Source of the DNA: a virus
Lineage: Duplodnaviria; Caudoviricetes
Length of the DNA: 40,279 nucleotides
Strand: one strand, 5' to 3'
IMG/VR virus record: IMGVR_UViG_3300027834_000297
Span: 1 to 40,279 of that record
Of this stretch, positions 27,906-39,559 are shown piece after piece (the stretch's first letter is position 1; every line of letters begins with the position of its first letter). The notes beneath the pieces were generated by a model, which worked only from the letters and a program-made list of their open reading frames with translations, made no database searches and was not told where the DNA came from. The translations under genes were made by a program, and so were the position numbers.

Positions 27906-27950
27906 ACATTACAACGCACGCGGATCACTTTTCAGATGAAGGATTTCGCA
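27906..27950 (-). promoter_or_regulatory. Activator-dependent late promoter for the lysis/packaging operon (Plys-like)
   Basis: Same 20-mer (27950-27931), then 19 nt, then TAATGT; the 20-mer lies in the 3' end of the activator gene. Confidence 0.7.
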
Positions 27951-28326
27951 TGTAGCTGAGAAGCGGTGGGTCTTCTTTGGTGTCTTCAAGGACCTTCGCC
28001 CGGAGCTGATAGACACGGCGATGCGTTACGCCAAAAGCATTGGCCACCTCATTTACGTTCGCATCGGGATTTTCGGCGATGACACGCTTGAGAGAGCTTG
28101 TTCGCCGCGCATGGGCAGAGGGAACCTCAACATATTCGCCAACGTATCGTTCAGATAGCCACGAGGCAATCGGGTGACCGACAACGCTTAGAATAACACT
28201 TTTGTTAAGGTGTTCGGGGGCCGGAACGTAAAGCCGCATTCCGCTGGCAGTGGACAGCACACGTGAGGCCGCACTTTCGCCCAATTCCTCGCACAGTTCT
28301 TCCAGCCATTCCGCCCCGATACCCAT
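27925..28326 (-). CDS. Mor/C-like late transcription activator
   Basis: G.RLYVP, G..VEVP, C-terminal HTH (VNEVANAFGVTHRRVYQL); directly before lysis genes; TAATG-coupled start. Confidence 0.75.
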   Translation of the reverse strand: MGIGAEWLEELCEELGESAASRVLSTASGMRLYVPAPEHLNKSVILSVVGHPIASWLSERYVGEYVEVPSAHARRTSSLKRVIAENPDANVNEVANAFGVTHRRVYQLRAKVLEDTKEDPPLLSYMRNPSSEK

Positions 28327-28568
28327 TAGCGGCCTCGGCGTCTGTATTTGCCGCGATCTGGGCGACATGTTTCGTGAATTGTGATAACTGTGCCGTTGTC
28401 GATGACATACCTGAAACCGCAGTGGTGCACACCGGACGCACCTTGTTCGACTGCCTCATCCACGCGGCGACCGATGCCTCGGCGGATTGCCTCGATATCG
28501 ACCCCATACACCCGCTCCAAAAAGCGCAGGACGGCGTGATCTGTGATGGGATGCATCGGCTTTTTCAT
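28326..28568 (-). CDS. Conserved hypothetical phage protein
   Basis: ITDHAVLRFLERV.G.DIEA motif. Confidence 0.7.
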   Translation of the reverse strand: MKKPMHPITDHAVLRFLERVYGVDIEAIRRGIGRRVDEAVEQGASGVHHCGFRYVIDNGTVITIHETCRPDRGKYRRRGR

Positions 28569-28602
28569 CGATCTGCATTCTCTCTTGTTGGTTTCAGTTT
28601 GT

Positions 28603-28672
28603 CAGCGAGAGTGGGATTTGAACCCACGGCCTCCCACGAAGTGGGTGCGCTACCGGACCGCGCCATCTCGCC
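28603..28672 (-). ncRNA. tRNA-like RNA with intact acceptor, D and T arms but a 3-nt anticodon loop
   Basis: GGCGAGA-TG-GCGC-GGTCCGGTA-GCGC-A-CCCAC-TTC-GTGGG-AGGCC-GTGGG-TTCAAAT-CCCAC-TCTCGCT-G. No encoded CCA. Confidence 0.8.
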
Positions 28673-28735
28673 TATTCCTTGTCGGTTCCCGGCATCCCTA
28701 TTTTATTCAGGAAGGTTTATCCGGGCGCACTCCGC

Positions 28736-29188
28736 TCAAGGCGTCTCCCAATTGAAGTCGATATCTTCGCGTTTCCCCCATGCCTTTAAGGCCTGAATCA
28801 CGGCGTCTATTTTCTTGTGATCGCGCAGCATATCGATGTCTGCCGGTACCGCATGCCAGGTGTCCCCGAATTGGGCGCGAATGAAGGCATTCAAACCAGC
28901 GCGGCCGGGACGTTCCAAAGCGCCAACCTCACCCAACTTGGCCCAGAGCACATGACAAAGCCTGAGATCGGCACGAGGGGCGGTTGCGCGCCGCTTGTTG
29001 GTTTTGCGGGCGTAAGGTTTGAACCCGTCAGCCTTCAGGCGGATAATGATTTTGTTGAGCTCGTCTTCGGTCATATCGCTCATGCTGGCTTTGCCGGTTT
29101 CAGCAACCTGCAACGCATGGCGCGAATCCTGATCGAGACCCAACTCGCGGCACCCAACATGGATCAAGCGTTTGAGGGAAGCGGTCAT
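28736..29188 (-). CDS. gemA: GemA / Mu gp16 family protein (DUF1018)
   Basis: LIHVG..ELGLD...R..L...TGK.S...MT..EL, L.AF, VIQALK.W. Confidence 0.88.
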   Translation of the reverse strand: MTASLKRLIHVGCRELGLDQDSRHALQVAETGKASMSDMTEDELNKIIIRLKADGFKPYARKTNKRRATAPRADLRLCHVLWAKLGEVGALERPGRAGLNAFIRAQFGDTWHAVPADIDMLRDHKKIDAVIQALKAWGKREDIDFNWETP

Positions 29189-29844
29189 TTGCGACCCCCG
29201 TGGTTCTTCTGTTTTGAGTTGGCTCGTTTGGCCTCGCGCACTTCATGTTCCAGCTTTGCTGTTGCCAGTAAAACCGGCTTCACTTCAGGTGGGGCCGCAT
29301 CATAATCGCGACCAAATCTACCGTTCAGGCGCGGCAGCATCGCCCGCGGGATGCAGGTCCAGTTTGACGGATCAGTATTGGATTTGTCGCCGTCGCGGCT
29401 CTTGAGGCACATGCCTTCCGGTACCGGGCCGTTTTCTTGTTCCCAAAGGTGGCGGTGCTTTTGCACATAGCGACGGGGAGCGCCGGTATGAGGATTTGTT
29501 TCTGCTACACTGATCTCGACGTAGCCGTCTTTCGTCACGTGCTCATGTCCGAGATATTTCGTGTTGTGTGGCATCTGCCCTTTCTTGAATTGCGTACGCG
29601 CGCAATTGGCGTTGAACGGCATCTTTTTGCCCTTGTTCGCTGGAACGCTTCCCGGCTCATAACAACCGGTCCGTCCTGTCAGCCAACCATTGCGCTTGCA
29701 GAGCGACTTCAAGTGATCATGCGACACATCTGTCCGGTTGAACCGCGCGGTGAATTTGGCATGCAGGTCACGGCGTGGCAGTTCCTTGCGCGCCTCAATC
29801 CACGTCAATTCTTGGACGCTGTATTTGACAGCCGCGCGCTTCAT
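29185..29844 (-). CDS. HNH-like endonuclease-family protein
   Basis: QFKKG..PHN, KDGY.EI.V, HR.LWE..NGPVP.G, DGD.SN...SN. The usual catalytic His appears to be missing. Confidence 0.75.
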   Translation of the reverse strand: MKRAAVKYSVQELTWIEARKELPRRDLHAKFTARFNRTDVSHDHLKSLCKRNGWLTGRTGCYEPGSVPANKGKKMPFNANCARTQFKKGQMPHNTKYLGHEHVTKDGYVEISVAETNPHTGAPRRYVQKHRHLWEQENGPVPEGMCLKSRDGDKSNTDPSNWTCIPRAMLPRLNGRFGRDYDAAPPEVKPVLLATAKLEHEVREAKRANSKQKNHGGRK

Positions 29845-30080
29845 TTCGTCGAGTTCCCGATCATTGGAAGGTGCGGTAATACGGTTTGTCCGTGCCGTGC
29901 ATAAAGCTCGGCCGCCCGCAATTTCAGAGTGGCGTTTCCTGTGACCTGATCGGCGACCTTCACGATAGCCTCAGCGCGTTTAACTTCATTTTCGATTTGT
30001 TCTTCGGTCAAGCTATCGTCAGATAAGCGTCCAAGCTGTGCAAACAGGTGGTCGTTGAGATCACTAAGATTGTTGGACAT
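29841..30080 (-). CDS. Conserved hypothetical protein, usual partner of the HNH-like gene
   Basis: N.L.DLN.HLF.QL.RL.D, E..RA.AI..VA. Confidence 0.75.
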   Translation of the reverse strand: MSNNLSDLNDHLFAQLGRLSDDSLTEEQIENEVKRAEAIVKVADQVTGNATLKLRAAELYARHGQTVLPHLPMIGNSTK

Positions 30081-30687
30081 GTTTCAACTCCTCAAATTTG
30101 GTGGTCTGATTGCCCCACACGTCGTTGTCGCCCCATGGCTCGCGGGCAAATAATTCGGCCTTGTGAGCATTGGGTAAGAGCCGATCGATCATTTCGCGCA
30201 TTTGGATCGGTTTGCGGGAATGCTCGCGGCGGATCGCTTCGATTTTGTCGGGCACGTCATCTATGTGAAGTGGCGCATCAATCACGTTCCGCTCTGATCT
30301 GCTTGTAATCTGCGGCCGGCCAATTTTGCCGATCAAATACGGCTCAGTCGCCGATCGCTGAATATACCCCGTGCCGAAAACCAGCTTCCAGTTCACAGTG
30401 CGCTTGATCCACGCACCGCCCGTTACATAGTCAAAGCCCCAGCTCTCCATCAGATCCTGTGCCTGTTTAAGATGCGGCCATGTCGACCACAAAAAAAGAT
30501 AACAATGTTGGTCAGAAAGATGCGCGATCGGAAGCTTTTTGCCTTCCGCAATCGGCATGGTTTCATAGTGCGCTTCAGGAGATTTCTCATAGCCCTTTGC
30601 AGACCGCATTTCATAGGGCCACGGATAATCAACGAGGATCGCGCCGTACTTCATCGGTGTGAGATGATCGAAAGGCCAATCGTTCAT
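30064..30687 (-). CDS. MT-A70 family (class beta amino-) methyltransferase
   Basis: YGAILVDYPW, HYETM, LFLW.T, WGF.Y, W.K, GTGY..R..TE, REHSRKP, ELFAR, WGNQ. ATG at 30687. Confidence 0.88.
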   Translation of the reverse strand: MNDWPFDHLTPMKYGAILVDYPWPYEMRSAKGYEKSPEAHYETMPIAEGKKLPIAHLSDQHCYLFLWSTWPHLKQAQDLMESWGFDYVTGGAWIKRTVNWKLVFGTGYIQRSATEPYLIGKIGRPQITSRSERNVIDAPLHIDDVPDKIEAIRREHSRKPIQMREMIDRLLPNAHKAELFAREPWGDNDVWGNQTTKFEELKHVQQS

Positions 30688-30836
30688 AGCGCCGCCACCA
30701 ACTGCACCAGAAGGAGCATGTAACCAGCGCCAAAGAGCGCAGATATAGCCGCTTCTTTCATCCGCGCGAACACGACTGCGCCAAGGAGGAACAAGGCCAT
30801 CGTAGTGGCGTGTGGTATGAGTTGATCCAGCGCCAT
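30684..30836 (-). CDS. Small two-TM membrane protein
   Basis: 50 aa, hydrophobic, ATGA-coupled to the methyltransferase gene. Confidence 0.55.
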   Translation of the reverse strand: MALDQLIPHATTMALFLLGAVVFARMKEAAISALFGAGYMLLLVQLVAAL

Positions 30837-39440: not shown

Positions 39441-39480
39441 TCCGACTTCTTCCGCGTTCATCCGGGGTCTTCCGGTTACT
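39441..39480. repeat. Four TCCG motifs at exact 10-bp spacing
   Basis: tccgacttct tccgcgttca tccggggtct tccggttact. Confidence 0.7.
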
Positions 39481-39559
39481 GCAATAAACTGTGTCCAACT
39501 ACAGCGCGCGATATCCAAAAGGTCACTTTCATTTTTGCCAGCCAAGTGCAGCCCGCTTG

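Follow-up and report, generated by a model that had tools for sequence, protein, structure and literature searches.

In plant mitochondria, t-elements are tRNA-shaped and non-decoding, lie between cistrons, and are proposed to direct cuts by RNase P and RNase Z. In phages, the tRNA-like stable RNAs of T4 and T5 are RNAs handled by the host tRNA machinery. RNase P reads the acceptor, T arm, and elbow of its substrates, while PrrC, VapC, and RloC are nucleases that read the loop. Phage RNAs and mRNAs are among the substrates of RNase P, including M3 RNA and the C4 RNA of P1 and P7 (PMC11143913, in the part available). Short-loop phage tRNA genes are absent from the available parts of PMC7824862, PMC4810235, PMC11662646, and PMC5389517, and the available text of PMC10690425 mentions tRNA-like viral candidates without an anticodon analysis. 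In the openly accessible main texts covered, tRNA genes with a short anticodon arm have not been described as a phage class. Two roseobacter Mu-like phages that have been isolated lack tRNAs according to the accessible portion of PMC5488378.

The window, meaning the whole stretch of 40,279 nucleotides analysed, is that of a marine Mu-like phage, with roseobacters as the source of GemA relatives at 60-70%. The order on the minus strand is an HNH gene, gemA, a tRNA-shaped element, an 80-aa phrog_8252 gene, a Mor-family late activator, and an endolysin (Table 1). HNH endonuclease and MT-A70 methyltransferase genes lie upstream of gemA (29185-30690, minus), and within the flank retrieved the HNH gene recurs in just 8 of 180 loci. 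The phrog_8252 gene adjoins gemA in most roseobacter Mu-like phages. The DHAxxRY motif of its product is conserved, and the protein is modelled with confidence as a small alpha/beta fold (pLDDT 87), with no Pfam match and no credible PDB sequence or Foldseek match; leads to the RelE superfamily (Atlas 0.81; ParE/RelE chains among VIA rows at Z 2.5-3.3, the best RelE/BECR-related row having Z 3.3, rmsd 4.7, and 60 aligned) are all below the bars of the tools. The phage looks intact and possibly active, not a decaying prophage. A 30-mer at 39474-39503, ending in CA like a Mu end, is found at both ends of a 39.6-kb unitig, and a second unitig (depth 11.4 versus 17.5) runs on into the flank; this looks like a prophage junction alongside an end-joined form of the phage, either circular or tandem. 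The flank beyond the phage end (39896-40279, minus) holds a 5'-open fragment presumably resembling a tyrosine recombinase.

Table 1. Coordinates of the element and of the features around it, numbered from the first letter of the window.
Feature	Position	Strand	Basis
Anticodon-less tRNA-shaped gene, tRNA-Met-like body, no encoded CCA	28603..28672	minus (28672 to 28603)	Rfam RF00005
Anticodon arm, putatively rebuilt: 5 Watson-Crick pairs and a 3-nt loop (28638-28640)	28633..28645	minus	parse
165-bp lineage-specific insertion in the gemA 3' end, providing the current gemA stop codon	28579..28743	minus	
4-bp GAGA direct repeat at the insertion junction, left copy (right copy 28579-28582)	28744..28747	minus	
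Displaced old gemA 3' end, its stop overlapping the phrog_8252 gene start as in relatives	28565..28582	minus	
TAAAAT, candidate -10-like box that precedes the tRNA body by 27 nt, without a recognisable -35, in a weak hairpin (28693-28714)	28700..28705	minus	read from sequence
Weak sigma70-like site (9/12) from insert 3' end and junction, facing the phrog_8252 start	28577..28605	minus	promoter scan
gemA (Pfam GemA, phrog_286)	28736..29188	minus	
phrog_8252 gene, 80 aa, small alpha/beta fold (model)	28326..28568	minus	
Mor/C-family late transcriptional activator	27925..28368	minus	

The element matches the Rfam tRNA family RF00005 at 53.1 bits (gathering threshold 29; E-value 9e-9 for the window), which is far beyond chance and is the sole Rfam match in the whole window. 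The acceptor stem pairs at 7/7 positions, including a G1-U72 wobble; U8, a 4/4 D stem, and a D loop with G18G19 are present; the anticodon stem is 5/5 Watson-Crick with the loop UUC; and a 5-nt variable loop, a 5/5 T stem, the T loop UUCAAAU, and G15-C48 complete the body. An earlier note, made from the letters, had described the same four fully paired stems, 3-nt loop, and retained tRNA features, and both the Rfam match and the parse confirm it. At default settings ARAGORN makes no call. The 7/4/5/5 cloverleaf, U8, G18G19, and T-loop consensus are those of a canonical tRNA, but that assignment was rejected for want of a 7-nt anticodon loop (3 nt here) and of A14. Position 14 is G, which loses the U8-A14 tertiary contact; 94 of 95 normal genes have A14, as do 74 of 78 with a short arm. 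The discriminator is G73. The earlier description of the element as tRNA-shaped and non-decoding is supported. Its anticodon stem contains A30-U40 with C31-G39, a combination found in 2 of 713 intact tRNAs, so it is not established that the arm is a normal one minus 4 nt.

The cloverleaf is the minimum-energy fold of the element alone (-30.6 kcal/mol, probability 0.47), and the closed anticodon stem is predicted at 0.98; the folding energy is unexceptional (z -1.6), with 34 of 500 shuffles folding as well. As had been pointed out before, the anticodon and T stems share the same two pentamers. The 5' strand of the former is identical to the 3' strand of the latter at 5/5 positions, which is seen in 0 of 98 normal tRNAs, with 4/5 in 13. 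An alternative fold proposed on this basis, with the anticodon strand paired to the T strand, is unfavourable at -21.8 kcal/mol, about 9 kcal/mol worse than the cloverleaf. Assembly error, also raised earlier, is an unlikely source of the 3-nt loop because the element has the same letters in two other contigs (loci L001/L002 and L169, 100% over 4.8-5.5 kb) and, free of indels, in the 39.6-kb unitig of depth 17.5, these sequences possibly being all from one sample.

In relatives, gemA usually runs into the next gene: of 180 distinct loci whose downstream DNA is long enough, 158 have a gemA stop that this gene overlaps, and 58 of 86 relatives have a gemA product ending in W and five further residues. 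In this phage the overlap of gemA and phrog_8252 is lost, and an empty site would restore the W-plus-five-residue ending, overlapping the next start. Because gemA of relatives overlaps the next gene and the old tail survives behind the insert, the element is, by sequence comparison, a lineage-specific insert and not a conserved part of the operon. The extra DNA separates genes that adjoin in relatives, as in a moron; the only moron-type signal of its own is the -10-like box, and no sense-strand terminator is called. The promoter scan makes no call at this TAAAAT box; the scan finds 4 sites against 1.2 +/- 1.1 expected in shuffles. The 165-bp insert has no integrase, the tRNA body is whole, and the best match of roseobacter chromosomal tRNAs to the element is just 81-86% over 28-36 nt, which upholds the earlier view that an att remnant is unlikely. 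An att-site tRNA fragment was rejected on its internal position and on the lack of near-identity to a host tRNA end, as compared with roseobacter tRNAs rather than the actual host genome.

With the anticodon arm set aside, the element comes closest, among intact genes, to phage tRNA-Met(CAT) genes that have a C11-G24 pair, from which it differs at 7-8 of 56 positions. Genes of this kind are 20 of the 30 top matches among 758 intact tRNAs, a set biased by the search patterns; reference tRNAs came from a pattern scan with a gap range covering normal-length tRNAs only. The best intact match is identical at 55 of 70 positions, which places the element at least 15 differences from any of the 758, and despite this not one of its pairs is broken. 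The acceptor stem is nearly identical to that of a roseobacter elongator-type tRNA-Met (L604), while the anticodon stem, though fully Watson-Crick, is unlike every Met stem listed. Loops beginning with TTC are frequent in intact tRNAs, and the remnant is compatible with loops of Met, Thr(CGT), and Pro(CGG), which leaves more than one candidate for the lost anticodon. Either a copying event or compensated changes may have rewritten the arm.

A covariance model of our own, built from normal and short-arm tRNAs and applied to 246 gemA/phrog_8252 loci, returns only the copy in this phage at 74.6 bits, with the next score at 19.8; in the 245 other loci it finds no tRNA of any kind, contrary to the conserved homologues that had been anticipated between gemA and mor. 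Low-threshold ARAGORN on related loci gives noise, and viral pattern scans for similar bodies return only the copy in this phage. BLAST against 401 family and 401 class genomes finds pieces of ordinary tRNAs and no relative of the element, and the five matches to a D/T pattern in 151 family genomes are all of normal length. Neither a relative nor a donor was found in the phage and plasmid records searched. The element is a singleton in the searches run, and since no relative was found there is no covariation with which selection on this copy could be argued from sequence.

The short-arm architecture itself is more widespread. A generic short-arm pattern is found in ~790 stored viral stretches (estimated from 10/64 parts) and in 0 of 401 roseobacter genomes, while a normal-length control pattern gives 2-8 matches per genome in 5/5 roseobacter genomes; short-arm bodies are therefore not the usual product of tRNA decay in roseobacter chromosomes. 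In a sample of 126 distinct viral matches from 153 loci, the acceptor, D, and T arms are intact in 78, and 16 of these 78 encode CCA. Nine short-arm genes, the element and eight others, have a 5-bp stem with a 3-nt loop. Five families from unrelated phages were picked by eye for analysis of their pairs. In a three-member family with a TTT triloop on a 5-bp stem (L404:1490-1558, L382:1490-1559, and L383:1490-1559, minus), 0 of 60 stem cells are broken and five pairs have changed on both sides. The corresponding values for the other four families are 12/140 broken cells with 7 such pairs (a family with a partly mis-parsed acceptor register), 0/40 with 0, 10/180 with 3, and 12/80 with 3, and in two of the five families several cells are broken. 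A family of L370, L389, L410, L379, L484, L479, and L455 (about 1489-1564 in L370) has variable 4-6-nt loops on compensated stems and sits between phrog_18243 and phrog_10740 genes where checked. No proteins are common to the short-arm loci and this phage. UUCG or GNRA tetraloops cap the short-arm bodies of L391, L611, L413, L476, L425, L478, and L518, which suggests deliberate closure of the anticodon arm. Initiator-type tRNA-Met bodies with GTT or CCC anticodons are also found in viral contigs (L539, L562, L593; L558, L574).

Because some families keep their pairs with compensatory changes, anticodon-less bodies are selected in some phages, which extends to this copy by analogy only. Among the sequences compared, there is no related copy from which deliberate retention of the element could be read, and comparable genes without an anticodon turn up in numerous unrelated phages. 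In a bolder proposal, which we consider unlikely, the element would belong, as a recent transfer, to a large phage-specific class of anticodon-less tRNA bodies that has gone undescribed (hundreds in IMG/VR, several compensated families); these would be tiny mobile cassettes exploiting host tRNA-handling proteins, here re-wiring late activator expression as well as releasing an uncleavable decoy.

Our tentative preference, which we hold at somewhat under an even chance, is that this is a processing element of the RNase P type that separates gemA from the phrog_8252-mor message; among the roles listed in the earlier note, a processing signal appears to fit best. A tRNA-Met-like gene would have been captured from another phage by recombination at short repeats, and its anticodon arm would have been remodelled once decoding was lost, because the rare 30-40 pair implies release from the constraint that normally applies, with base pairing either maintained or restored. 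The element would be transcribed together with the early/middle operon, in which it lies on the sense strand between cistrons, as a t-element does. The parts needed by RNase P are all intact, including G18G19, the T loop, and G15-C48, so the RNA, if folded, is likely to be cut by host RNase P at 28672 and trimmed by 3' nucleases near 28603. Cutting would separate the gemA message from that of phrog_8252 and the late activator mor, with a processed 5' end and uncoupled translation of the activator cistrons as the predicted effect and a small, uncharged tRNA-shaped RNA as the predicted by-product. The recurrence of the short-arm architecture in viral contigs, compensated in some families, is consistent with such a role, but those families are from unrelated phages and were chosen by eye. 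The predicted folding depends on the leader. Acceptor pairing is 0.72-0.97 with short leaders or after 5' cutting, and leaders of no more than about 20 nt, which would result from a start behind the TAAAAT box, favour the cloverleaf; leaders of at least 45 nt, as in long read-through, argue against processing with acceptor pairing of 0.00-0.18, the cloverleaf then being within 0.7 kcal/mol of the best fold. The operon operates in relatives that lack the element, and the conserved position and fold of a t-element are lacking across their loci. G14 and the missing CCA also count against processing, which is lowered by tertiary disruption and by lack of CCA in the part of PMC11143913 available.

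A neutral history is doubtful but has to be taken seriously: a captured phage tRNA with a Met-, Thr(CGT)-, or Pro(CGG)-type loop would have recently lost four loop bases, or had its arm overwritten by one template switch from the T arm, and would be unselected even if perhaps still processed. This explains the singleton status, A14G, G73, and the missing CCA, and a copying event would give the 5/5 identity of anticodon and T strands with no need for selection. TTC-starting loops are common in intact tRNAs, and a Thr(CGT)-type loop would, judging by its letters, lose the 4 nt between GT repeats. The earlier argument that decay would damage stems is weak without a dated ancestor, as two neutral hits miss all 42 paired positions with a probability of 0.16, and the U8-A14 contact has in fact gone. 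However, a neutral relic would not be expected to have a fully Watson-Crick stem unlike any listed Met stem, the same architecture is conserved with compensation in other phages, and the apparent integrity of the phage does not suggest a prophage in decay.

A trans-acting decoy, an excised and CCA-completed RNA that competes for a host defence or toxin gripping the elbow, D arm, or acceptor end, seems to us rather improbable. In the sources as available, the contacts made by AriB lie distal to the anticodon loop and certain viral tRNAs may act on it as competitive inhibitors (PMC12409363), Cas12a3 loads tRNA through the T arm, acceptor stem, and CCA (PMC12851939), and tRNA-Met, which the element body resembles, is a target class of VapC (PMC10264068); short-arm genes are moreover enriched in viral contigs. 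The decoy for anticodon nucleases proposed earlier is nevertheless the least natural of the suggested roles, the part that is cut being itself missing, and with it the recognition site for PrrC, VapC, and RloC. A single small gene with no clear promoter would also face the large host tRNA pool, CCA is not encoded, and relatives facing the same hosts have no copy. Two minor readings are very improbable. If the insert were kept for its effect on DNA, as a promoter of phrog_8252-mor with the tRNA shape as baggage, the sigma70-like site across its end and the AT-rich -10-like box would be accounted for, but promoter matches are near the chance level and the intact stems are left unexplained. We give similarly little weight to a partnership with phrog_8252, in which the RNA would be an antitoxin or substrate mimic of a RelE/BECR-like RNase, or to a decoding tRNA with a 3-bp stem and 7-nt loop. 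The DHAxxRY motif and weak RelE-superfamily leads point to the former, yet the protein occurs without the RNA in more than 120 loci and its fold scores are all sub-threshold; opening two pairs would give the latter a 7-nt loop centred on UUC, but with C33, an arm two pairs short, and a stem that is predicted to stay closed.

It is not settled why phages carry tRNA genes, and whole bodies that lack an anticodon part the roles of shape (processing, decoy) from decoding. The empty site of relatives is a clean natural with/without comparison at the gemA locus. A single copy limits the value of the locus, and more importance attaches to the class, of which default ARAGORN misses the present member.

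Two other tRNA-like RNAs were considered and rejected. The tRNA-like domain of tmRNA has a G3-U70 pair and no D stem, whereas the element has C3-G70 and a 4-bp D stem, with no tmRNA call, so neither this domain nor a mini-tmRNA applies. For bacterial Y RNA (YrlA), RF00005 is the only family matched in the window, the element is not permuted, and Ro60 is not among the 20 ORFs scanned. Phage tRNA-Met(CAT) (RF00005; for example L286 and L290, annotated as tRNA-Met/fMet in phage records) is alike in the acceptor, D, variable, and T regions, but the element has no 7-nt loop or anticodon, an atypical anticodon stem, A14G, G73, and no CCA. Nuclease-resistant phage tRNAs, as described in the available parts of PMC10264068 and, for T5 tRNA-Lys, PMC12409363, also have an altered anticodon arm on a phage body; they still decode and rescue translation, while the element cannot. 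The tRNA fragments at attR (PMC9897764, in the part available) are another case of a non-canonical tRNA-like call in a temperate phage, but are partial copies of host genes at the end of the integrated element, whereas the present element is full length, diverged from host tRNAs, and internal to an operon. M3, C4, and the T4 and T5 RNAs are similar as phage non-coding RNAs handled by host tRNA machinery; unlike the element, they are not shortened cloverleaves, and C4 is an antisense regulator. The plant mitochondrial t-elements (the subject of PMC1920247) are likewise tRNA-shaped, non-decoding, and placed between cistrons. The element differs from them in belonging to a bacteriophage, in its full four-arm body, and in that its cleavage is predicted only, and it probably works like a t-element.
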